64,000 nt of DNA, taken from the IMG/VR virus record IMGVR_UViG_3300045988_111617. One strand, written 5' to 3'. Shown piece by piece: positions 1 to 11,937 of the stretch. Positions within the stretch are counted from its first letter, which is position 1, and every line of letters begins with the position of its first letter. The DNA comes from a virus. Made by a program: the position numbers and the translations under genes. The notes under the pieces are model-generated. The model searched no databases, had not been told where the DNA came from, and was given only the letters and a program-made list of their open reading frames with translations.

Positions 1-183
1 ATATATTACCATCTATAGAAATTCAACATAAATATTGGTACTTATGGCGAGTTTCATTTTCTTGGTTAAAATGGAATTACACTATTAATATTACTAACCA
101 ATATTGGAATAAAGGTTAATAATAAATGCCAGAATGGTGGAATTGGTAGACACGAGGGACTTTAATAATAAAATGAATTAGTT

Positions 184-666
184 ATGGTTTATGAAAATTG
201 TAAATTTTATGGACCATATCAAAGTAAAAAGGATAAAAGATTAAGATGTTTATTAGTTCGTCCAAATGGAACTAAAGTTACATTATCTTATCCTAAATAC
301 TTGATGGAAGTTCATTTAGATAGATATTTGGAAAATAATGAAACAGTAGACCATATTGATGGGAATTTTCTCAATAATGATATTTCTAATTTACAAATTT
401 TAAAAAGGCAAGAACACTGTTATAATGATGTTATTAGAAATAAAAACATTAAAGTTAAATGTAGTTATTGTGGGAAATTATTTACTATACCAGGAAATAT
501 GATTAACAATAGAAATAGAAAGTTATCTGGATATTTTTGTAGTAAAAGCTGTTCTGGAAAATATGGAAGAGAAATTCAATTAGGTCTTAGGACAAAAGAA
601 GAAGATTCTCAAAAAATAATTCCAAATAAATATCAGGTTAAGAGTGCTCAAGTTGGAAACTCTTGA
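184..666 (+). CDS. HNH homing endonuclease
   Basis: 160-aa ORF; HNH-type motif VDHIDGNFLNNDISNLQIL; C-terminal Cys cluster CSYCGK...CSKSCSGK; TGA stop. Confidence 0.65.
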   Translation: MVYENCKFYGPYQSKKDKRLRCLLVRPNGTKVTLSYPKYLMEVHLDRYLENNETVDHIDGNFLNNDISNLQILKRQEHCYNDVIRNKNIKVKCSYCGKLFTIPGNMINNRNRKLSGYFCSKSCSGKYGREIQLGLRTKEEDSQKIIPNKYQVKSAQVGNS

Positions 667-924
667 GTAGATGTGGGCTAAACGGTGAAGGTTTCAGCCT
701 GTAAATGAAAATAACGCCGTGCTAAATTCAATAAATTAACTTATTGATAAATGTGTAGAGACTATACACCCACCTCCTAAACAATAATTATATTGCACGG
801 AGAAGACATAGTCCAAGCTAATAATTAATAGTAAGATTATTAGTATGAAAATCCCTTGGGCAGCAATGCCTGTGTGAGTTCAAGTCTCATTTCTGGTACT
901 AACTAAAGATATTGTATAGTGACA

Positions 925-983
925 GACAGAGTTACTTCATTAAGACTTGCAATTCTTAACTCTCATATAACAGCATCTCTGTC
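925..983 (+). other. structured element A (7-bp outer stem gacagag/ctctgtc enclosing gagttacttc motif and inner 4-bp hairpin)
   Basis: Perfect 7-bp inverted repeat closing 45 nt; inner hairpin aaga/tctt; shares core gagttacttc with elements at 1028, 1176, 4934. Confidence 0.35.
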
Positions 984-1027
984 TAAATTTTCTTATGATA
1001 TCTTATATAAGGCACTATTGTTGACAT

Positions 1028-1069
1028 TTAGAGTTACTTCAAGCGTCTCTTGCTTTCAACAGACTCTAA
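1028..1069 (+). other. structured element B (7-bp outer stem ttagagt/actctaa, gagttacttc core, inner hairpin aagc/gctt)
   Basis: Outer and inner stems covary relative to element A while the single-stranded core is conserved; immediately upstream of the tRNA. Confidence 0.35.
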
Positions 1070-1100
1070 AGATTGTTACATAGTGTCTTTCAATCTAAAC

Positions 1101-1230
1101 TTCCCTGTAGCTCAGTTGGTAGAGCATGATGTAAAAAGAACTGTAAAGAATGTTCCCTAATTGTGGTGATGTTTACAGTTACTTCGGATTTGTAATCTCA
1201 GGGTCCTTGGTTCGAGTCCAAGCAGGGAAG
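1101..1230 (+). tRNA. tRNA-like gene with canonical acceptor, D and T arms, interrupted by about 60-nt insertion; anticodon unresolved
   Basis: 7/7 acceptor pairing ttccctg(1101-1107)/cagggaa(1223-1229). D arm is tagctcagttggtagagc. T arm is cttgg-ttcgagt-ccaag. The insertion contains a 9-bp hairpin aactgtaaa(1140-1148)/tttacagtt(1171-1179). No 5-nt partner for the anticodon stem tgatg could be found. Confidence 0.45.
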
Positions 1231-1262
1231 TTTTTTAATAGAAACTTTAATAATATAACAAT

Positions 1263-1493
1263 ATGATAACAACAGTAGAAGAGCTAATTTCTGCATTAGC
1301 AAAGTATCCAAAAAACACGAAGGTATATTCCAACCTTATTACTCGAAATTTTAAGGGTGAACTTGTTATAGAACATCAAATAACTCTTGAAGAAAAAAAG
1401 GCAGCTGAAAAGGAAACAGAGGAGTTCTATAAAAGGTACAAAGAAGATATGGATAGAAGCGGAGAAATAACTTCTTTTGCAAATAGATGGTAG
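1263..1493 (+). CDS. hypothetical protein
   Basis: 76-aa ORF, TAG stop. Confidence 0.45.
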   Translation: MITTVEELISALAKYPKNTKVYSNLITRNFKGELVIEHQITLEEKKAAEKETEEFYKRYKEDMDRSGEITSFANRW

Positions 1494-1545
1494 AATTGCT
1501 ATCATTTAAATAATAATCATAAAATAACAAATAGGAGGAATAGAT

Positions 1546-1725
1546 ATGTTGATACCTATGTATTTTTTCATACAAATTTTATTTGTTGTACTTAGAATAA
1601 CTAATGTCATTGACTGGAGCTGGAATAAAGTACTCATTCCTACATGGATTATGTTGGGCATCCTTGCAATGTGGTTAGTGTTTTGTCTGGGCATATTGAT
1701 TGTTTCAGCAGCAATGTGTTTTTAA
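1546..1725 (+). CDS. small membrane protein (59 aa, below ORF-track cutoff)
   Basis: ATG at 1546 preceded by aggagga SD; two hydrophobic helices (MLIPMYFFIQILFVVL... IPTWIMLGILAMWLVFCLGILIV); TAA stop. Confidence 0.5.
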   Translation: MLIPMYFFIQILFVVLRITNVIDWSWNKVLIPTWIMLGILAMWLVFCLGILIVSAAMCF

Positions 1726-1747
1726 AATAAATTGAATATATGTAAGA

Positions 1748-2191
1748 TTGAATGGGAGGAATAATATGAAGCAGTTTAATTTGGATGAATACTTGAAGAA
1801 TCCGCAAAGGAAGGTTATTACAAGAGAAGGGCTTCCTGTTAGAATTATTTGTACTGATAAAATTTGTGACAACAGAGGAAGTCAAAAACCAATAATGGCA
1901 CTTGTAAATTTTGGTGATAAAGAAGTTGTTTATCCTTATACTTCAGATGGTATAAGCTCTCCATTATTGCCTAAATTTGATTTATTTTTCACCCAAGAGA
2001 AAAAAGAAGGTTGGGTAAATATATATACCGATAATCGTGGAGTCGCATATTCTGGACAAGTGATTCACAGTGAATATAAAAATGCAGAAACTGCTGGGCG
2101 GTCACTTGAAGGTTATCTAACAACAGTAAAAATAGAGTGGAAGGAACAAAATGTCAATAGATGGAAAGGCAAAAGATTTTGCTGGTTATAA
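1748..2191 (+). CDS. hypothetical protein
   Basis: 147-aa ORF with gggagga SD. Confidence 0.55.
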   Translation: MNGRNNMKQFNLDEYLKNPQRKVITREGLPVRIICTDKICDNRGSQKPIMALVNFGDKEVVYPYTSDGISSPLLPKFDLFFTQEKKEGWVNIYTDNRGVAYSGQVIHSEYKNAETAGRSLEGYLTTVKIEWKEQNVNRWKGKRFCWL

Positions 2192-2350
2192 CACGCCATC
2201 TTCACAAGATATAGTAACTTCAGCAAAGATGAATGGCAAATATGAAGGATTTAAGGCTGGTGCTGAGTGGATGTTTAAGAAGATGAGTGATTTTGGAAAG
2301 TATGATTATGTTGATTGGGACGATTGATAGGGAAATAATGGAGGTTTAAT

Positions 2351-2569
2351 ATGACAATAGAAGAAAAAGCAAGGGTAGAATACCCTTATATAACTCCATC
2401 TGACGGGTATGAAGACCATGATTATAATGAAGCCGCTAAAGACGGGTTTATTAACGGAGCAAAATGGATGCTTGAAAACGCGGCAAATTGGATTGGTGAT
2501 AATGTGGTCTTTGATAAGTTTGGAAGACCTATAGATGTCGAGAATTTTAGAAAAGCAATGGAGGAATAA
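2351..2569 (+). CDS. hypothetical protein
   Basis: 72-aa ORF with ggagg SD. Confidence 0.5.
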   Translation: MTIEEKARVEYPYITPSDGYEDHDYNEAAKDGFINGAKWMLENAANWIGDNVVFDKFGRPIDVENFRKAMEE

Positions 2570-2572
2570 ATC

Positions 2573-2806
2573 ATGGCGTGGTTAAAATATAGTGACAAGG
2601 GTATAGTCAATTTAGATAAAATTGTAAATATTCATGTTAGAGAAGCAGATACGTATAGGTGGGCTATTTACCTTCATGATGATGGAAATAATACATATCG
2701 CTCAAAGATATATAGTTCATGGGATGAATGTATGAAAGACTTTAATGTTTTGATGGAGTATTTGGAGGATGGCGCACAATTCATTGATATGACAAATCTT
2801 TTATAA
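2573..2806 (+). CDS. hypothetical protein
   Basis: 77-aa ORF with ggagga SD, tightly packed after previous stop. Confidence 0.5.
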   Translation: MAWLKYSDKGIVNLDKIVNIHVREADTYRWAIYLHDDGNNTYRSKIYSSWDECMKDFNVLMEYLEDGAQFIDMTNLL

Positions 2807-2819
2807 ATTAATTTAGATT

Positions 2820-3110
2820 ATGGGAGTAATTATAGGAGCAGTTATTTTATTTACATTTTTGTCACTTTTGTTTGCATTTTTAGCAGGTATATTTATTACA
2901 AAAATGCGTGATGATACTGATATAGTTTGGTGTGTGGCTTCTATACTTGGCCTCATATTAAATGTTGGTCTTTCTATAGCTGCAATACAGGTGTATTATG
3001 AGAAAAAAGAATACTTACCAACCAAATATGAACTCAAAAAGAAAGTTATTCATATTGAAGAAGACAACACAATTAAATTAGATACAGTTTACAAATTTAT
3101 GTGTAAATAA
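2820..3110 (+). CDS. hypothetical membrane protein
   Basis: 96 aa with two predicted TM helices at N-terminus. Confidence 0.5.
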   Translation: MGVIIGAVILFTFLSLLFAFLAGIFITKMRDDTDIVWCVASILGLILNVGLSIAAIQVYYEKKEYLPTKYELKKKVIHIEEDNTIKLDTVYKFMCK

Positions 3111-3111
3111 T

Positions 3112-3474
3112 ATGGAGTCAATTTATAATAGCTATATCCCAGAAGATTTAGCCAGAAAAATGCTGGATGTTGGGTTTCCTCTGTACAAATATGGTATAGG
3201 AAGTTATGATGGAAAACCATCTTTCTTTACTGTAGATGAAGATAATCCAATATGGGAAACTTGTGAGAGATTTAGAATCCCTACATATGCAGAAGCTCTG
3301 GATATGCTTTTAGATAAAAATATTACAATCTCTATAGAACCAACGGATGAACTTAAGTTTGAATTTTTTATCTATTTTCAGAGCACAAAAGGAAAGATAA
3401 GTAGTCTTTCTAGTGTACGCGATAATTTTAAAACGGCATTAAAAGATGCAACATCTATGGCTATTTGTTTTTAA
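3112..3474 (+). CDS. hypothetical protein
   Basis: 120-aa ORF directly abutting the previous gene. Confidence 0.5.
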   Translation: MESIYNSYIPEDLARKMLDVGFPLYKYGIGSYDGKPSFFTVDEDNPIWETCERFRIPTYAEALDMLLDKNITISIEPTDELKFEFFIYFQSTKGKISSLSSVRDNFKTALKDATSMAICF

Positions 3475-3656
3475 ATAAATTTAATATGTTAGTAAAAGAA
3501 CTTATTGAGGAGCTTAAGAAGTTTCCTGAAGATGCTGATATCATAGTTACTACAAAATATAAAGGATATAATGTTATATCTTCTGTTGGAGCTATGAGAA
3601 CTGTTGAAACAGAGAAAGACAATGCTGAAACTATTTGTCCAGTATTGATTTTCTAA
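3465..3656 (+). CDS. hypothetical protein
   Basis: 63-aa ORF overlapping previous stop. Confidence 0.4.
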   Translation: MFLNKFNMLVKELIEELKKFPEDADIIVTTKYKGYNVISSVGAMRTVETEKDNAETICPVLIF

Positions 3657-3671
3657 ATATATGGGGGTGTT

Positions 3672-3845
3672 TTGGTTTTGATTACACTCTATTTGGTAGT
3701 ACCTTATGCAGTAGATGTGCAGCCTACTTTAAAAAAGCACAAACCAATAAATGCTAACAAAGCTAGAAAAACAGTTAGAAGCCTTGTAGATTATATTAAA
3801 TCTGCTATGCAGGCACCAGCAATCTCTTTTGCAGTTGCTGCCTAA
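3672..3845 (+). CDS. possible small secreted/membrane protein with TTG start
   Basis: Open frame from stop at 3654 to TAA 3843-3845 without ATG; TTG at 3672; hydrophobic N-terminus LVLITLYLVVPYA. Confidence 0.2.
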   Translation: MVLITLYLVVPYAVDVQPTLKKHKPINANKARKTVRSLVDYIKSAMQAPAISFAVAA

Positions 3846-4197
3846 CAACTGGCTTTAGTATTTGTGCCTTAAACAAATACTTGGTGGATGATGGGTGGAT
3901 GTTACCACCTGACTTTTGGAGTATTTCAGCAGTAATTGAAATACTATCCTAAGCATATAAATAAAGGTATTATTGAAGGTTTGTAAGACACAGGTTCAAC
4001 TACTCGGACCCTCTGCACAGGAATGTGCAGATGAAAACTGCTTGAACTGCTGGAAAGCTAAGTATCTGTTGAGAAACACATATATGCTAATCAGCATCCA
4101 AGCCTCTGGGAAGACAGAGGAAGGTTCAGAGACTAAGGACACTAAGGTGAGCCTACAGTAAGCAGCACCAAGAACTGGTGATGATATAGTCCAATCT

Positions 4198-4773
4198 CTA
4201 ATTAAAATTAGAAATATATTTTGAAATTAATTTAAGATATTGTTTAGTTTCTAAATCAGACATTGTATTTTTAAGATAATTTATAGGAGTAGATACAAAT
4301 TGTATATTTCCTATGATATATCCTTTAGAAGAATCTATTCTATCTAAAGAAGCCCTATTAGCAATAGGAATATCTTTAGTATGATTAGATGTAGGTAAAA
4401 TAAGAGAAATTCCAGTATATGGACATATTCCTTGCTGATTATTCCAGACTTCTCTGAGATAATCTATAGTCAAATTAAAGTTCTTATACCTCTTTTTAGC
4501 ATTTCTAAAGGTATATTTAAAAGGAGTATCTTCTGTTCTTTTATTCCCTGAAAGAGAAGATATATGCTTTTTACCTTCTTCACTGTTTCTCCAATCAGAA
4601 GTGTGATTAAGATTATGTTTATTAGCATAAAGTACTGAGCAACTTCTGGAACAGAAGTTATGTCTTCCTAATTTTAAATTTCTTTTATACTCTGATTCTG
4701 GTTTAGTAGCTTCACATCCACAATTATCACATGTAAAAGTGATAAGTTTTCTATTTTTCTTATAATTTAGCAT
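4198..4773 (-). CDS. HNH homing endonuclease
   Basis: 191 aa; N-terminal CDNCGC...CSRSC zinc-binding; C-terminal SLDRIDSSKGYIIGNIQFV typical of phage HNH_3 endonucleases. Confidence 0.6.
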   Translation of the reverse strand: MLNYKKNRKLITFTCDNCGCEATKPESEYKRNLKLGRHNFCSRSCSVLYANKHNLNHTSDWRNSEEGKKHISSLSGNKRTEDTPFKYTFRNAKKRYKNFNLTIDYLREVWNNQQGICPYTGISLILPTSNHTKDIPIANRASLDRIDSSKGYIIGNIQFVSTPINYLKNTMSDLETKQYLKLISKYISNFN

Positions 4774-4985
4774 AGTTAATATAATTAATCATGCAAAGAT
4801 AAGAATAAGTCGTGGAATTATCAAGTTAATAATTGAAATATTTAGCGAGTCCTGTCACCTCCACTAATAAATGGGGAAGTAGCATAATAAAAAAACTCTT
4901 GAGCTTTTACTTCTGAAGAGATAGTGTTATTGAGAGTTACTTCAGGTTAATGCATTAGTATCATAAACTAAAGATTGTTTGTTCA

Positions 4986-5001
4986 AATCAAACCTTCCCC
5001 A
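4986..5001 (+). repeat. 16-bp direct repeat aatcaaaccttcccca (left copy) flanking GIY-YIG cassette
   Basis: Exact 16-nt match with 5712-5727. Confidence 0.8.
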
Positions 5002-5068
5002 GGAACATAAAAGTAGAACCTCCACGCGGTATGTTCTGGGTAATGCTAATCTACTTAATATAACAATT

Positions 5069-5713
5069 ATGATTTCTATTTACTGTATTACTAATAAAAT
5101 AAATGGAAAAAAGTATGTTGGGAAAACTCATTTACCTATAACTTCCAGATTTTCCCAACATATCCATGATGCTCTGTTTAGACCTTCTATGAATAGACCT
5201 CTACATAAGGCTATATTAAAATATGGAAGAGAAAATTTTGATATAGAATTGCTATGTACCTGTAGTATAGAAGAATCAGATTCAAAGGAGTCTTATTATA
5301 TCAATAAATTAGGTACTTATAGAAAAGGATATAATGTAACTCTTGGAGGAGAAGGTAAATTTTCTATTGACTATAAAGAAGTAATTGCGGTATATAAATC
5401 TGGAAACAGTATAACAGAAACTTCAAGGATAGTAGGATGTGATAAAAGTTCTGTCTTGAAGATTTTAGATATGTATAATATTAAAAGACATCCAAGATTT
5501 TCTGTTACTTCTGGCAAGAGTAAAGCTAAAGCTGTCTTGCAATATTCATTAGATAATAAATTTCTTAGGAAATTTAACTCCTCAGAAGAAGCAGCTAAAC
5601 ATATTGTACAAGAGAGAAGAATAAAGTATAGCAAAGGGGTGTCTTCTAAAATAGCAAATTGTGCTAAACATAAGACATTCTCAGCATATGAATATAAGTG
5701 GGAGTATGAGTAA
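5069..5713 (+). CDS. GIY-YIG homing endonuclease
   Basis: MISIYCITNKINGKKYVGKT GIY-YIG motif; the ORF-track start at 4979 is TTG and lies upstream of the repeat; ATG at 5069 favoured. Confidence 0.7.
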   Translation: MISIYCITNKINGKKYVGKTHLPITSRFSQHIHDALFRPSMNRPLHKAILKYGRENFDIELLCTCSIEESDSKESYYINKLGTYRKGYNVTLGGEGKFSIDYKEVIAVYKSGNSITETSRIVGCDKSSVLKILDMYNIKRHPRFSVTSGKSKAKAVLQYSLDNKFLRKFNSSEEAAKHIVQERRIKYSKGVSSKIANCAKHKTFSAYEYKWEYE

Positions 5714-5727
5714 TCAAACCTTCCCCA
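5712..5727 (+). repeat. 16-bp direct repeat aatcaaaccttcccca (right copy)
   Basis: Exact match to 4986-5001; overlaps stop codon of the GIY-YIG gene. Confidence 0.8.
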
Positions 5728-5731
5728 CCAT

Positions 5732-5761
5732 AGGACACTTCAGAATGAGGTGTCCTTTTTA
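5732..5761 (+). terminator. rho-independent terminator
   Basis: aggacac...gtgtcct stem followed by T-run. Confidence 0.6.
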
Positions 5762-5787
5762 TTTGTAAATCATTAAAACCTTATATT

Positions 5788-6171
5788 ATGATAGAGTATA
5801 GAGTTGTAATTTGGAACTTTTCTACTGACAGAGTAGAGCATTATGATATAATGCCTTATCTGTACAGAAGACTTGAAGAGAAGAGGAAGAAAAGGCAGAT
5901 AACATTGAAAGACCTCACTCTGGAAAAGCTGAAAGAGTTCATTGATGCTGAATCAAAGTATCAGTTCTGGGCAAGATGTGAGTATGAAGTAATACTTTCT
6001 TCATGGCCCCCAAGAGAGAATGGACGTAGACATAAGATGGATGTATATGAGCAGATTCATATGAATCTTGACAATATAGCCAAACTTATGTATGATGACC
6101 TTCAGAGAGGAAAGCCTGCAAGAGTAAGCAAGACAAATAAGTACATAAGAGTTAAAACTTTAAATAGTTAA
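5788..6171 (+). CDS. hypothetical protein
   Basis: 127-aa ORF. Confidence 0.5.
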   Translation: MIEYRVVIWNFSTDRVEHYDIMPYLYRRLEEKRKKRQITLKDLTLEKLKEFIDAESKYQFWARCEYEVILSSWPPRENGRRHKMDVYEQIHMNLDNIAKLMYDDLQRGKPARVSKTNKYIRVKTLNS

Positions 6172-6542
6172 TGAACAATCAATCAAAAATTCTTCTCACT
6201 GTACAAGGTATAGAGGGAGGAACCCTAAGACCCATTGGGAAAAAGAGGGTCAAGTGGTCCATAACCAAAAAAGATTTGGACCCAAAATACCATGGTAAAG
6301 ATGCATTCAAGCCAATCAGGAAAGGTCATACGGATATTCCTGATTTTGAGGAAATATCTTGCCAGCAGACTATTAAACTTACACAGGATGCCTATGACTA
6401 TATGACATCCCCTGAACAACCTTACTGGTTCAAAGGTAATTGGAAGCTCATGACCAAGAAACAGAGACTTGAGGTTCATCTTCAGAGGATATGTGATGAT
6501 AGGAGAGGCACAAGTTACACCTATTCAATCCTTGAAGATTAA
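6171..6542 (+). CDS. hypothetical protein
   Basis: 123-aa ORF, start overlaps previous stop. Confidence 0.5.
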   Translation: MNNQSKILLTVQGIEGGTLRPIGKKRVKWSITKKDLDPKYHGKDAFKPIRKGHTDIPDFEEISCQQTIKLTQDAYDYMTSPEQPYWFKGNWKLMTKKQRLEVHLQRICDDRRGTSYTYSILED

Positions 6543-6742
6543 TGAAAGTAAGAACAAAGAAAGTAATCTTATTTGCACTATGGCTTGTAATAGTATTTCC
6601 TGTTTTTGGAATGCTTCTTTCAGGCTTAAGTGCTCCATCTACCATTACTAATCTTGCCTCAGTGTTGGCAATAGTTGGATTAGTTTTGGTTAGTATAGAC
6701 ACAAAATGTTTCACAAACTTTATAAAAACTAAAAACAAATGA
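6542..6742 (+). CDS. small membrane protein
   Basis: 66 aa, two TM helices. Confidence 0.45.
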   Translation: MKVRTKKVILFALWLVIVFPVFGMLLSGLSAPSTITNLASVLAIVGLVLVSIDTKCFTNFIKTKNK

Positions 6743-7311
6743 GTAAATTTTTCAAATTTATTATGGTTATTGCAGCAGTAACCATGATGGCAATGTCCTG
6801 TACAAGAATCAATGCAGGATATGAGGGTATCAAGGTCAATCTCTATGGAGATAAAAAGGGAGTAGATGATATCACTCTTGTAACTGGTATGGTATGGTAT
6901 AATCCTATCACTACAGCAGTCTATGAATATCCTACATTCATTCAGACTGTAGACTATGAGCCATTTACTATCAATGCAAAGGATGGTTCTCAGTTCACTA
7001 TTGACCCTACTATCAACCTTAACATGATTCCAGGTACTTCTTCTAAGGTATTTGTAAAATATAGGAGACCTATGGAGGAAGTTATAAGGGATGTACTGTA
7101 TACTCATGTCAAGAATGCCTATAGGATTAAACTCAGCAATTATACTACAGATGAGTTGGTATCCAAGAGGGAAGAGTTTGAAAAGGCTACAGAAGATTAT
7201 CTCAGGGAAGTGCTGTTCAAGGAGAACTTTGAACTTGGAGAAATGACTTCAGGTCTTAAGTATCCTGCCTCACTTGAAGCCTCTATTACAGCAAAGAATG
7301 AAGCTAAAATG
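6739..7311 (+). CDS. SPFH/band-7 (stomatin/prohibitin-like) protein, exon 1
   Basis: N-terminal TM segment then SPFH-like region (GIKVNLYGDKKGVDDITLVTGMVWYN...). The ORF-track reading frame runs into intron sequence and stops at 7338. Splicing at the duplicated aaaatg joins it to exon 2. Confidence 0.5.
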
Positions 7312-7444
7312 TATGGTTTCCTAACAAGAAATTGTTAGATAAAAAATATTTCCTTAATTGCTGGAAACTCCTAAGTAATTTATTTACTCATTTGCATAAA
7401 TCAAATATTTTTATTATATTTGTTTTATAAAAATGAAATAAATT

Positions 7445-8146
7445 ATGGACAATCAGCAGCCAAGTACTAATTACAGAAGTATAAAGAAAAATGCTCTAAA
7501 ATACATAGTTTCTATTGGGGAAATCTATGGAGTTTATAAAGTATTATCTGAAGAGAAAATACAAACTTCTAAATGTACAGAAGTTAGATATAGATGTGTA
7601 AATATAAACTCTGGGCAAGAATATCTTAAAAGAGGAAGAGAACTTTATAGAATAAGAGACAGAGTAAATAATAAATTTCAAAATAAAAGACAAGAAGGAC
7701 TTAGAAGGTATTTATATAGAAATTATATGAATAATGCAAGGAAAAGGAAGCATGACTTCTCTTTATCATTTGAGGAATTTGATAATCTTATATCACAGCC
7801 ATGTTATTATTGTGGAGAACCTCCTAAAGAGGTAGATAAAGAGTTCCTTTGTAAAAGAGGGGATAGATTTCAACCCAATATAACTGTAAATGGAATTGAT
7901 AGAAAGAATCCTCTGATTGGTTATCAGTTAGATAACTGTGTTCCTTGTTGTCCTACTTGTAATTATATGAAACATGTCTCTACAGAATCTGAATTTCTCT
8001 CTCAAATAAAGAAAATCTATACTTTTAAAATTAGTAAAGGTTCAACGACTATCCCGAGAGGGAGTACATCACAAGCTAATGGTGATGGAAATGGGAAACC
8101 CTTAACAGATAATACTGAAGGTGAAGATATAGTCTCAACTTTATAG
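7445..8146 (+). CDS. HNH homing endonuclease (intron-encoded)
   Basis: 233 aa; HNH motif GIDRKNPLIGYQLDNCVPCCPTCNYMKH. Confidence 0.65.
   Translation: MDNQQPSTNYRSIKKNALKYIVSIGEIYGVYKVLSEEKIQTSKCTEVRYRCVNINSGQEYLKRGRELYRIRDRVNNKFQNKRQEGLRRYLYRNYMNNARKRKHDFSLSFEEFDNLISQPCYYCGEPPKEVDKEFLCKRGDRFQPNITVNGIDRKNPLIGYQLDNCVPCCPTCNYMKHVSTESEFLSQIKKIYTFKISKGSTTIPRGSTSQANGDGNGKPLTDNTEGEDIVSTL
8099..8134 (+). repeat. 36-nt repeat (33/36 identical to 11857-11892), intron core segment
   Basis: cccttaacagataatactgaaggtgaagatatagtc vs cccttaacagataatgctgaaggtgaagacatggtc. Confidence 0.8.
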
Positions 8147-8208
8147 AAATATAAAGAAGTTTCATAGAAAACTGCATAAGTGTTGCGAACTTATGTGAAG
8201 ATAAAATG

Positions 8209-8424
8209 GTACAGAAGAGTCAGAAGGCACAGAATGAACTTGAACTTGTAAAGGCAGAGGCAGAGAAGATGCTTGTTTCTGCAAGAGCAGAGAAAGAGGC
8301 TAACTTGCTTAGGACACAGGCTCTTACACCTCAGGTGCTTGAACAGATGTGGATAGAAAAGTGGAATGGTGTTCTACCTGTATATGGTACAGTTCCTACT
8401 CTATTCAAAGATATAACCAAGTAG
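8209..8424 (+). CDS. SPFH/band-7 protein, exon 2 (C-terminal coiled-coil)
   Basis: VQKSQKAQNELELVKAEAEKMLVSARAEKEANLLRTQALTPQVLEQMWIEKWNGVLP resembles the AEAEA-rich C-terminus of SPFH proteins; in frame with exon 1 after splicing. Confidence 0.5.
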   Translation, partial: VQKSQKAQNELELVKAEAEKMLVSARAEKEANLLRTQALTPQVLEQMWIEKWNGVLPVYGTVPTLFKDITK

Positions 8425-8425
8425 T

Positions 8426-8731
8426 ATGTGGTGGATATTTATATCTATAGTTTTTGCCCTTATACTGTATGTAAGCACAAGAAACCTTGCAGAATACGGT
8501 GGTAGGGGCAAAGGCTTTATACCAGTTAAATTTCCTATTTGGGGATTACTGTTGCTAATCATTTCTCTACTCATTCCTATTTTTAACATCCTTGCATTTC
8601 TTGTATGTATAGTCTCGATTTTTATAGCAGTGTCTATGGGAACCAAATATACTAATGATGGATGGCACCTCATAAAGGGGAAGAAGAATTGGGTTTACAG
8701 TGCAGTAATGTTTTTACAGAAAGAAATCTAA
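8426..8731 (+). CDS. NfeD-like small membrane protein (candidate SPFH partner)
   Basis: 101 aa, three TM helices then a short soluble tail, immediately downstream of the SPFH gene; NfeD-SPFH pairing is a known operon pattern. Confidence 0.35.
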   Translation: MWWIFISIVFALILYVSTRNLAEYGGRGKGFIPVKFPIWGLLLLIISLLIPIFNILAFLVCIVSIFIAVSMGTKYTNDGWHLIKGKKNWVYSAVMFLQKEI

Positions 8732-8961
8732 AAAAAAAAATGGATAACACAGGAACATTTAAGAGTGCTCTTACTCAGAGTTTCAAGGGCATCAAGGAAA
8801 CAAAGGCTGCTGCCTTGACAACATGCAGAAGAGATATAACCTCAAGATGAATCTTGTAATTACTCATACTGATATAGACTATTCTGAAGCTGGTGTATGT
8901 TTCCCTAAAGGAGACTGCTCTTTCTTTATAAATAGTATGTCAAAGGTTCTTAAAGAGTTTC

Positions 8962-11021: not shown

Positions 11022-11097
11022 AAAACCTTAACAATTTTCTTAATCTATTGTATATTTGAATCATTTGTTTTATATTTGCAGTTACAAATTAAAACAT

Positions 11098-11742
11098 ATG
11101 GACAAAATTACAAGAGATTTAAGAAAAGCTGGTATTTATTGTATAGAGAATACTAAAAATAAAAAGGTGTATATAGGAAGTTCCAAAAACATCTATCAAA
11201 GATTATTGAAACATTTTGCCTTATTAAGGCATAATAAGCATCAGAATGGACATCTTCAAAATGCATGGAACAAGTATGGAGAAGGTGTGTTCAGATGGTA
11301 TGTTTTAGAGTTCTGCTCAGAGGATAAATTGACTGAAACAGAACAACTTTGTATAGATTTATTTGGAGCTGAATATAACATAACAAGGATTGTGGAAAGA
11401 AATGTTCTATCAGAAGAGTCAAGAACAAAGCAAGGAAATACAAGGAGAAGGCTTCATCAAGAAGGGAAACTTGAATGGAACTTTAATCCTGTGCCTTTGT
11501 ATGTGTATGATTTAGATGGAAATTTTCTGTTTATAAATCCTTTAGGAGTTAAAGATACAGCAAGTAAATTAGGCATATCTGCATCAAGTATATGCAGAGT
11601 TACAAATGGAACCTATAGTCAATGCAAAGGCTACAGGTTCTCTTACAAACTTGAAAATCTACCTCCTATAACTGTAAACTCTAATAAACAAAATGTAAAA
11701 TACCAGAGATTAAGGACTGCCGTGTCAAAGAGAAATTTTTGA
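11098..11742 (+). CDS. GIY-YIG homing endonuclease (intron-encoded)
   Basis: MDKITRDLRKAGIYCIENTKNKKVYIGSS; start chosen at atggacaa, which is shared with the HNH intron ORF start context. Confidence 0.65.
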   Translation: MDKITRDLRKAGIYCIENTKNKKVYIGSSKNIYQRLLKHFALLRHNKHQNGHLQNAWNKYGEGVFRWYVLEFCSEDKLTETEQLCIDLFGAEYNITRIVERNVLSEESRTKQGNTRRRLHQEGKLEWNFNPVPLYVYDLDGNFLFINPLGVKDTASKLGISASSICRVTNGTYSQCKGYRFSYKLENLPPITVNSNKQNVKYQRLRTAVSKRNF

Positions 11743-11856
11743 TATTATAACACCTGAATATCCTCAGAAGCTAAGTTGGGAAACCAATATGTCAATTTGA
11801 GGAGGCATAGGCTATACCTTGAGTATAGATTCAGCCCCAGAGGCCAGATGCAGGTG

Positions 11857-11892
11857 CCCTTAACAGATAATGCTGAAGGTGAAGACATGGTC
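11857..11892 (+). repeat. 36-nt repeat, second copy (intron core)
   Basis: 33/36 identity with 8099-8134. Confidence 0.8.
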
Positions 11893-11937
11893 CAGACCAC
11901 AAACATTTATTGTGGTAGGGAAACCTATAGTGGTAAG

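Follow-up and report, generated by a model that had tools for sequence, protein, structure and literature searches.

In the 64,000-nucleotide (nt) DNA of the IMG/VR virus record IMGVR_UViG_3300045988_111617 (the window, by which we mean the whole stretch of DNA that was analysed), a gene of the SPFH/band-7 family is called as two open reading frames (ORFs), 6739-7338 and 8206-8424, that are held apart by an endonuclease gene. Is the SPFH gene broken, is it translated in two pieces, or is it interrupted by an element that leaves at the level of the RNA? An earlier note, written from the letters of the DNA alone, had favoured an intron that carries an HNH-type endonuclease gene and whose excision restores one reading frame, and this central claim is strongly supported by the intron-less alleles and by the RNA fold described below. 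The 903 nt from 7306 to 8208 (plus strand, as are the features below unless stated otherwise) are very probably a mobile group I intron of subgroup IA (IA2-like, the type of T4 td and Twort), placed between two SPFH codons of a crAss-like phage; the element starts with AAAAUG and ends with AAAAUG, with omega-G at 8208. The phage is related to the Steigviridae: the best DNA matches of 6500-8800 are Steigviridae/Asinivirinae (IAS virus, PhiCrAssBcn1-3, cr106_1 and cr126_1), in which SPFH/prohibitin is a single ORF, and for the first 20 kb of the window the nearest GenBank phage records reach no more than about 80%.

Intron-less alleles and the SPFH reading frame

Alignment with intron-less SPFH homologues, which the earlier note had proposed as a check, finds the homologues uninterrupted and delimits the insert exactly. 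Three sister phages (IMG/VR contigs _082301, _070924 and _077578) are collinear with the window up to 7305 and again from 8209 on, with flanks that are 94-98% identical (90-96% in a blastn comparison of the whole region), and lack precisely 7306-8208, such that their junction, AATGAAGCT|GTACAGAAG, equals window position 7305 joined to 8209. The three sister loci (L004/L036, L005/L035 and L006/L041), whose SPFH proteins are 95-99% identical to that of the window, read ...AAGAATGA(A/G)GCT|GTACAGAA... at this place, the L004/L036 junction being identical to the 7305/8209 join. At the boundaries there are no shared bases that would allow them to shift. Both exons are open and 98% identical to the intron-less alleles, and removal of the insert restores a 260-amino-acid (aa) SPFH protein that is colinear with its homologues, across the predicted ligated-exon junction AATGAAGCTGTACAGAAG.

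A 5' splice site at 7311 had been put forward before, with a product reading ...EAKM-VQKSQ..., and both need correction. The site lies six bases away, at 7305/7306, where the intron-less alleles read AATGAAGCT|GTACAG and where U7305.G7315 closes the first helix of the intron (P1), and the predicted product is ...NEA-VQKSQ..., without the 'KM'. We rejected the 7311/8209 junction, which would read ...GCTAAAATG|GTACAG: it conflicts with the intron-less alleles, it would let exon 1 end in G and not in U, and it adds a Lys-Met that is absent from all homologues (...AKNxA-(V/I)Q...).

Exon 1 (6739-7305) comprises 189 codons and ends in ...AAU GAA GCU, the point from which the intron-less L004/L036 gene continues as GCT|GTACAG. 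The called ORF 6739-7338, correctly described as SPFH-like, matches Pfam Band_7 with an E-value of 8e-18 and includes 11 codons of read-through into the intron, up to the TAG at 7336-7338. Exon 2 (8209-8424; 71 codons plus stop) is placed by the intron-less alleles and by alignment with uninterrupted homologues, and the ATG of the called ORF 8206-8424 is borrowed, consisting of the last three intron bases. On its own this ORF matches no Pfam family; its counterpart in uninterrupted crAss-phage SPFH proteins is their last 70 residues, to which it can be aligned, in agreement with its previous designation as the SPFH C-terminus. The spliced product scores 71 bits against PF01145 (cut-off 23.6), making it a member of the SPFH/Band 7 family, and its GenBank homologues are annotated 'prohibitin family' or 'SPFH'.

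The earlier note had conceded that its proposal would fall if 8206-8424 were an independent gene. SPFH is one ORF in 22 IMG/VR loci found by a protein-guided scan and in 3 GenBank crAss-like phages, and in all of them the segment is fused to the SPFH domain, which speaks against an independent gene. Twenty-four of these 25 loci are full-length; the other one (L025 2992-3282, in an IMG/VR crAss-like phage) has a large in-frame internal deletion that leaves about 60 N-terminal and about 38 C-terminal aa in a protein of 96 aa, which suggests that the SPFH gene can be lost.

Ribozyme fold and splice sites

A local search with the group I covariance model of Rfam (Intron_gpI, RF00028), also proposed previously, did return a match at 7924-8156 (40.3 bits, E 1.4e-8), albeit below the gathering score of 50, along with a weak second group I match at 7359-7496 that corresponds to P4-P6. 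In the window the core is split by a 556-nt ORF in L6a and by a 75-nt insert in L5, which keeps its score below the gathering threshold. ORF-less, compact members of the same intron family reach 90-107 bits with this model, and the Rfam alignment of one of them (L082) has the same helix placement, P7.1/P7.2 being inserted between P7 and P3'. We derived the helix map by comparison with related introns; it places the 5' strands of P3-P6 at 7349-7472, and the P3-P6 that the Rfam alignment of the window sets inside the ORF (7990-8040) was discarded.

In this map, P1 (7300-7305/7315-7320) pairs exon GAAGCU with the guide GGUUUC, as seen in RNAfold and in the orthologs, and P2 (7321-7327/7332-7338, CUAACAA-GAAA-UUGUUAG) has a GAAA loop and an RNAfold z-score of -5.9. 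The core runs through P3 (7349-7354/8093-8098), P4 (7359-7364/7453-7458, 3' strand UCAGCA), P5 (7369-7371/7447-7449) with the L5 insert (7372-7446), P6 (7459-7461/8039-8041, 5' strand GCC), P6a (7465-7472/8029-8036, 5' strand UACUAAUU) and P7 (8047-8051/8130-8134, GACUA/UAGUC), with P7.1 (8052-8063), P7.2 (8067-8087) and P8 (8100-8121, then J8/7) lying between the strands of the last. P9 (8139-8156, GAAA loop), P9.1 (8159-8172) and P9.2 (8174-8196) precede the 3' tail (8197-8208, GAAGAUAAAAUG), which ends with omega-G. All mapped pairs are standard pairs in the window; the outer P5 positions 7372 and 7373 are unpaired there and paired in relatives, and the U.G pair, omega-G and the J8/7 and P7 sequences are intact. 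The window therefore holds the parts of a group I core (P3-P9, the P3/P7 pseudoknot, J8/7 and P7). It also has P7.1 and P7.2, two additional helices located between the 5' strand of P7 and P3', which we take to mark subgroup IA (Michel & Westhof 1990 definition).

In a family alignment of 24 members (A3), from which the variable L5 and L6a loops were trimmed, 92.2% of cells are paired under this fold, compared with 38-47% when partners are slid by 1-3 columns. Changes on both sides are seen in 46 of 66 pairs, and the covariation score of 0.519 (versus 0.10-0.14) is reached by none of 500 shuffles. P3 is 99% paired, with double-sided change in five of its six pairs, and compensatory changes are found in P6a, P7.1, P7.2, P9, P9.1 and P9.2, with P7.1 and P7.2 paired at 100%.

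At the 5' end, RNAfold predicts two neighbouring hairpins, P1 and P2 (z = -4.4), and pairs U7305 with G7315, and the U.G at the end of P1 is matched at the 3' end by omega-G (G8208) and P10. For the latter, the guide part 7310-7314 (UGUAU), read from the sequence, pairs with exon-2 GUACA (8209-8213); these bases lie 5' of and directly beside the P1 guide, the P1/P10 guide arrangement. Among eight distinct orthologous SPFH introns, with endonucleases 47-67% identical, the splice-site U.G is invariant (8/8), four positions from the splice site GC, AU, CG and UA pairs are all seen, tracking the exon, and the guide follows the exon as in GAAGCU/GGUUUC, GAGGCU/GGUCUC and GCUGCU/GGCAGC. Compensatory changes affect 6/7 pairs of P2, the four pairs of the P10 core UACA/UGUA are kept in 7-8 of the 8 orthologs (P10 being 7 bp long in L214), and the ortholog alignment overall is paired in 92.4% of cells versus 33-45% when slid. 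Judged from these alignments, an exon-tracking guide would be hard to explain without continued selection for splicing.

In the mechanism that we propose, the guide of the pre-mRNA (7310-7320) would pair with the end of exon 1 (P1, with U7305.G7315) and, after the first step, with the start of exon 2 (P10). An external guanosine would attack after U7305, the freed 3'-OH of exon 1 would then attack after omega-G8208, and the exons would be joined as ...AAU GAA GCU|GUA CAG... to encode the 260-aa SPFH protein.

The junctions also hold the two copies of a repeat to which the earlier note had drawn attention. Both strings, tgaagctaaaatg at 7299-7311 and tgaagataaaatg at 8196-8208, can be seen in the window and agree at 12 of 13 positions, but they mark neither splicing nor a duplication. 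In GUGAAGAUAAAAUG, the 3' copy, we recognise the tail of the intron family (consensus GAAnAnAAAUG), which recurs as GUGAAGGUAAUG, GAACAUAAAUG and GAAUAUUAUG in introns of other genes, and the 5' copy is made up of the codons N-E-A followed by an A-rich linker and two bases from the start of the guide. The two copies are less alike in orthologs, whose guides would not pair with the tail. A target-site duplication or a guide mimic was considered and rejected, as group I mobility makes no duplication and the 3' copy is a family-wide tail. We read the repeat, which stays partly unexplained, as a coincidence over two separate constraints.

The conserved tail bears equally on a different account of the locus, in which a free-standing HNH gene splits SPFH into two separately translated polypeptides that reassemble, with no RNA splicing, as for endonuclease-split genes in T4-like phages. 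In its favour, an in-frame ATG (8206) precedes exon 2, and in every ortholog a separate ORF of 69-84 aa is annotated by gene callers. That ATG, however, is the conserved ...AUG of the intron tail, which family members inserted in other genes have as well, the sequence on either side of the ORF makes up a full ribozyme supported by covariation, and the ends of the insert coincide exactly with the U.G of P1 and with omega-G, so that we consider a split gene highly improbable and a group I intron the better reading.

The endonuclease gene and the spread of the intron

The intron ORF (7445-8146) starts in the 3' strand of P5, stops in P9 and encodes a predicted homing endonuclease of 233 aa, of the PacI-like HNH (His-Me finger) type. 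It matches PHROG 1035 'endonuclease VII' (9e-20) and phrog_3118 HNH (5.5e-12), and PacI (3LDY) is matched in its catalytic core, over about 90 residues, by a profile built from 24 homologues (E 1.6e-7). Invariant in the 24 homologues are C120, Y122, C123, G150, R153, Y160, N164, C168, C169, C172, N173 and K176, and the (nearly) invariant motifs read CxxCG, G-(I/V)-D-R, GY and N-x-V-x-C-C-x-x-C-N-x-M-K, providing both the catalytic core and the zinc-binding cysteines of HNH/His-Me finger enzymes.

Gene and ribozyme share their sequence at both ends of the ORF. Only the ORF body (7473-8028, 556 nt) is looped out of P6a, a helix that ORF-less relatives close within 20-40 nt. Codons 1-10 double as P5'-J5/4-P4'-P6-P6a, and the last 39 codons plus stop (8029-8146) double as P6a'-P7-P7.1-P7.2-P3'-P8-P7'-P9, with the stop at the P9 loop. 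Translation of the ribozyme core explains why M(D/E)NQQPS and SSTTIPKGSTSQANGDGNG..EGEDIVS are conserved peptides throughout the endonuclease family.

Upstream of the start codon, the L5 insertion contains a promoter-like motif of the Bacteroidetes type, composed of TTTG (7391-7394), a 20-nt spacer and TATATTTG (7415-7422), which ends 22 nt before the endonuclease ATG and fits the Bacteroides -33/-7 promoter consensus. The composite TTTG-N18-21-TAnnTTTG occurs three times on the plus strand of the window (about one expected) and is kept in six of eight distinct orthologs, including L211, L214 and L217-L219, 21-34 nt upstream of the start. Five copies of the exact 8-mer TATATTTG are found on the plus strand of the window, three of them (7415, 11051 and 11071) upstream of the two intron ORFs, that is, this one and that of the helicase intron described below. 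TAnnTTTG by itself was dismissed as a promoter marker, as its count in the window equals expectation (76 observed, 76 expected). From this pattern it is plausible that the endonuclease gene has its own internal promoter.

A more speculative idea, to which we give a minor chance, is that endonuclease gene and ribozyme are interlocked as a switch. Transcripts from an upstream promoter would fold, hide the AUG and splice, and transcripts from the internal promoter, devoid of half the core, would be unfolded and translated; the idea derives from the location of the start codon (7445-7447) in the 3' strand of P5 and of the L5 motif downstream of the 5' strands of P1-P5. If true, this switch would be that of an uncharacterised family of PacI-like homing endonucleases, widespread in gut-phage introns, with M-D/E-N-Q-Q-P-S ... 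S-T-T-I-P-K-G-S-T-S-Q-A-N-G-D-G-N-G as its ribozyme-encoded termini.

The intron and its endonuclease are found in many other phages. A P7-P7.1 pattern retrieves at least 119 IMG/VR stretches, and related introns reside in the DNA polymerase gene of cr53_1, in a nucleotide-binding (P-loop) protein gene of cr50_1 and in Dulem virus 41. The endonuclease has 67 homologues at E<=1e-10, and seven of the eight that were looked up (98% to 47% identical) lie between a 186-201-aa Band_7 ORF and a 69-84-aa ORF, with the eighth (L220) at a contig end and flanked by a matching exon junction sequence. This common SPFH context indicates that the same codon boundary is occupied in many diverged phages. No GenBank phage record carries an endonuclease more than 47% identical to that of the window, and the nearest IMG/VR relatives are without the intron; it is present in the Logan contig L210, with 8 differences in 903 nt and an upstream flank that differs by about 6%. 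An assembly chimera, in which the intron of another phage was joined into the contig, might be suspected of a window whose assembly is probably metagenomic, but it is effectively refuted by the occurrence of the same intron at the same site in the independent assembly L210 (endonuclease 98% identical) and of orthologous introns at the same codon in at least seven other independent assemblies (JGI, ENA, NCBI and Logan). By analogy with other phage intron endonucleases, the PacI-like HNH nuclease would cut intron-less SPFH alleles in co-infection, and repair would copy the intron into them.

Several points weigh against a mobile, splicing group I intron at 7306-8208. The whole-window Rfam gathering scan lists nothing there, the local score of 40.3 being below 50. 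The members of A3 were chosen by sequence motifs in P4, P4' and P7, which are thus invariant by selection, and the covariation weight accordingly rests on P3, P5, P6a, P7.1, P7.2, P9, P9.1 and P9.2; owing to its variable length, P8 is poorly aligned in the family (63% paired). The HNH endonuclease that the earlier note had placed between the exons stands on the PHROG and PacI-profile matches, whereas the match to Pfam HNH (PF01844) alone is sub-threshold, at 13.6 versus 21.4 bits. There is no clear co-conversion tract relative to the intron-less sister allele, and splicing itself is something that we infer from the anatomy.

The sub-threshold Rfam score and the inferred nature of splicing would also suit a decayed group I intron that does not splice and leaves SPFH as a pseudogene or as a 199-aa N-terminal fragment only. 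The overlap of the ORF with much of the core, which could constrain folding, and the internally deleted SPFH of L025, which suggests a dispensable gene, point the same way. Yet all helices, the U.G, omega-G, J8/7 and P7 are intact, both exons are open and 98% identical to intron-less alleles, and the guide-exon covariation in eight diverged orthologs requires continued selection for P1. We hence regard decay as improbable and retain an intact intron as the explanation for the interrupted SPFH gene.

Neighbouring introns and known systems

A second group I intron (11022-11937, boundaries U11021 and G11937), with a GIY-YIG ORF at 11056/11098-11742, splits the replicative-helicase gene in its Walker A codons; the sisters lack 11022-11937, and joining restores ...NQKVGKSK. 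It scores 23.5 bits against Intron_gpI, with the whole core P3-P9 downstream of the GIY-YIG ORF, and its Rfam alignment contains no P7.1/P7.2 and nothing after P9 (and so no P9.1/P9.2). Its P1 is odd, in that the sole evident hairpin (AAGGU/ACCUU, with a 3-nt loop) pairs the splice-site U with A and not with G. The orthologs in PhiCrAssBcn14-16, 18 and cr112_1 are annotated as separate nuclease and helicase genes, with no intron feature.

The earlier note had described the SPFH and helicase introns as related introns with different homing-endonuclease families that share a 5' region and a 36-nt core segment overlapping the HNH C-terminal coding sequence. The core identity is reproduced (8099-8134 versus 11857-11892, 33/36): it represents the P8-J8/7-P7' module, the end of the ORF being ribozyme core, and in a direct comparison of the two introns only 8099-8127 versus 11857-11885 (28/29) is significant. 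As for the 5' region, the strings TTTGTTTTATA (7419, 11064) and ATGGACAA (7445, 11098) are indeed in both introns but lack statistical weight, as the common 12-mer ATTTGTTTTATA has an E-value of 0.04, the same score as an unrelated ORF-to-ORF 12-mer; similar promoter-like boxes (TATATTTG at 7415, 11051 and 11071) are a more likely source of these strings than common descent. The 23-mer of the P8 hairpin, CCCUUAACAGAUAAUGCUGAAGG (8099-8121, 11857-11879), is found verbatim in at least 42 IMG/VR contigs and in several intron subtypes (loci L168-L209), in phages of roughly 100-230 kb and in smaller contigs, with clearly different P7 and P3 contexts. P8 is otherwise variable in the SPFH-intron family. 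A recent exchange of P8 between the two co-resident introns was considered from the different P8 of the helicase-intron orthologs in PhiCrAssBcn18 and cr112_1, and is unsupported given the presence of the 23-mer in at least 42 contigs. The description as related introns holds insofar as both are group I, share a module and have endonucleases of different families, but architecture and ORF position differ and, as far as their sequences tell, the two are not close relatives.

A third group I intron appears to interrupt the T-loop of a phage tmRNA gene (3663-4895). The Rfam tmRNA match (48.1 bits, 3671-4002) stops at ...GACACAGGUUCAACU, and a local search gives Intron_gpI at 3987-4213 with 76.1 bits (gathering 50), a match that the whole-window Rfam gathering scan does not list. 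By eye, the T-stem and the acceptor stem (GGGGGUG/CACCUCC) can be completed with a candidate tmRNA 3' exon, UCCUGUCACCUCCAC, located at about 4877-4895, giving a putative intron span of about 4003 to 4876, with a 191-aa ORF on the minus strand (4198-4773) that has a degenerate PacI-like motif. ARAGORN, run on 1-8000, returned nothing, not even the tmRNA. In L210, a similar tmRNA 3' end is followed directly by intron-like P2-P4 sequence, upstream of SPFH. Just downstream of the candidate 3' exon in the window lies an apparently free-standing GIY-YIG + NUMOD1 ORF (4979-5713, Pfam), which brings the number of endonuclease genes within 8 kb to three or four. Elsewhere, the IMG/VR contig L068 (minus strand, 513-2633) has three Rfam-significant group I introns in 2.2 kb (96.8, 69.1 and 53.5 bits), which illustrates how dense such introns may be in related gut phages.

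Downstream of SPFH, and starting 1 nt past its stop, is a 101-aa ORF (8426-8731) that by eye encodes a small multi-pass membrane protein with about 30 residues beyond the last hydrophobic stretch; a 100-116-aa ORF directly follows SPFH in several relatives. It had been called NfeD-like, a label that we drop, as neither NfeD (PF01957) nor any other Pfam family is matched significantly at E<=10 and PHROG yields no match. A pair of SPFH and small membrane protein may exist, but not an SPFH-NfeD pair. At about 8801-8830, between this ORF and a SNF2-type helicase, the window is without about 2.2 kb that the sisters carry (L036 1561-3777, L035 and L041), and the corresponding place in L210 and L025 holds an adenylosuccinate-synthetase-like gene.

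Annotation is directly affected: wherever the SPFH intron occurs, gene callers give a Band_7 protein that is cut short, a 233-aa ORF without a name and an orphan ORF of 69-84 aa, and the Rfam gathering scan misses the intron, whereas the exact splice sites restore the 260-aa SPFH protein. Among crAss-like phages, the Steigviridae-like branch (ΦcrAss001 / IAS virus) appears to have active mobile group I introns, apparently three of them within 8 kb here (tmRNA, SPFH and replicative helicase), and phages that otherwise share 94-98% identity differ by their gain or loss. The PacI-like endonuclease, with the presumed target sequence AAGAATGAAGCT|GTACAGAAG, is a candidate rare-cutting enzyme. None of this changes the understanding of how group I introns work.

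The T4 td intron with I-TevI belongs to subgroup IA2, interrupts a phage protein gene and has P7.1/P7.2 between P7 and P3'; its endonuclease ORF is looped out of P6a and has its own promoter in the intron, and the reading frame meets a stop codon shortly past the 5' splice site. The SPFH intron resembles td in the phage protein gene, P7.1/P7.2, the ORF in P6a and the early stop after the 5' splice site, and possibly in an internal promoter, which here is putative. It differs in that its endonuclease is PacI-like HNH and that of td GIY-YIG, in that its ORF starts in P5 and runs through P6a'-P9 such that both ends are ribozyme core, and in that the host gene is SPFH and the host phage a Bacteroidota-infecting crAss-like phage.

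Group I introns with HNH endonucleases are known from the Bacillus phages SPO1/SP82 (I-HmuI/II) and Bastille (I-BasI) and from the Staphylococcus phage Twort, and the SPFH intron shares with them an IA2-type core and an intron endonuclease of the HNH superfamily. In blastn searches, Bacillus and other phage genomes match its 3' core (8029-8200) at 72-76% identity, with 53 Staphylococcus records among the matches. The enzymes of those phages are I-HmuI-type nicking HNH proteins with NUMOD domains; the SPFH-intron enzyme aligns to the PacI core and shows no NUMOD domains, and the host genes differ. PacI itself (PDB 3LDY/3M7K), to which the core CxxCG ... G(I/V)DR ... GY ... N ... C..CN..K can be aligned, is a free-standing restriction enzyme of 142 aa, whereas the SPFH-intron endonuclease is intronic and has about 90 extra N-terminal aa and ribozyme-encoded termini. 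Closest at hand, the helicase intron resembles the SPFH intron in being group I, in being missing from the same sisters, in the P8-J8/7-P7' module and in TAnnTTTG upstream of its ORF, and differs in its compact core and in an ORF that lies upstream of P3 instead of in P6a.

A full-text literature search for a group I intron in an SPFH gene returned nothing relevant. Group I introns with endonuclease ORFs that interrupt genes of crAss-like phages have been reported, without mention of the SPFH gene (Yutin et al. 2021, PMC7886860), and these are of the same type as the SPFH intron, namely self-splicing-type introns with endonuclease ORFs in crAss-like genes. What is new is the host gene, SPFH, and the uncharacterised family of PacI-like intron endonucleases, in what is otherwise a familiar and ordinary kind of mobile element.

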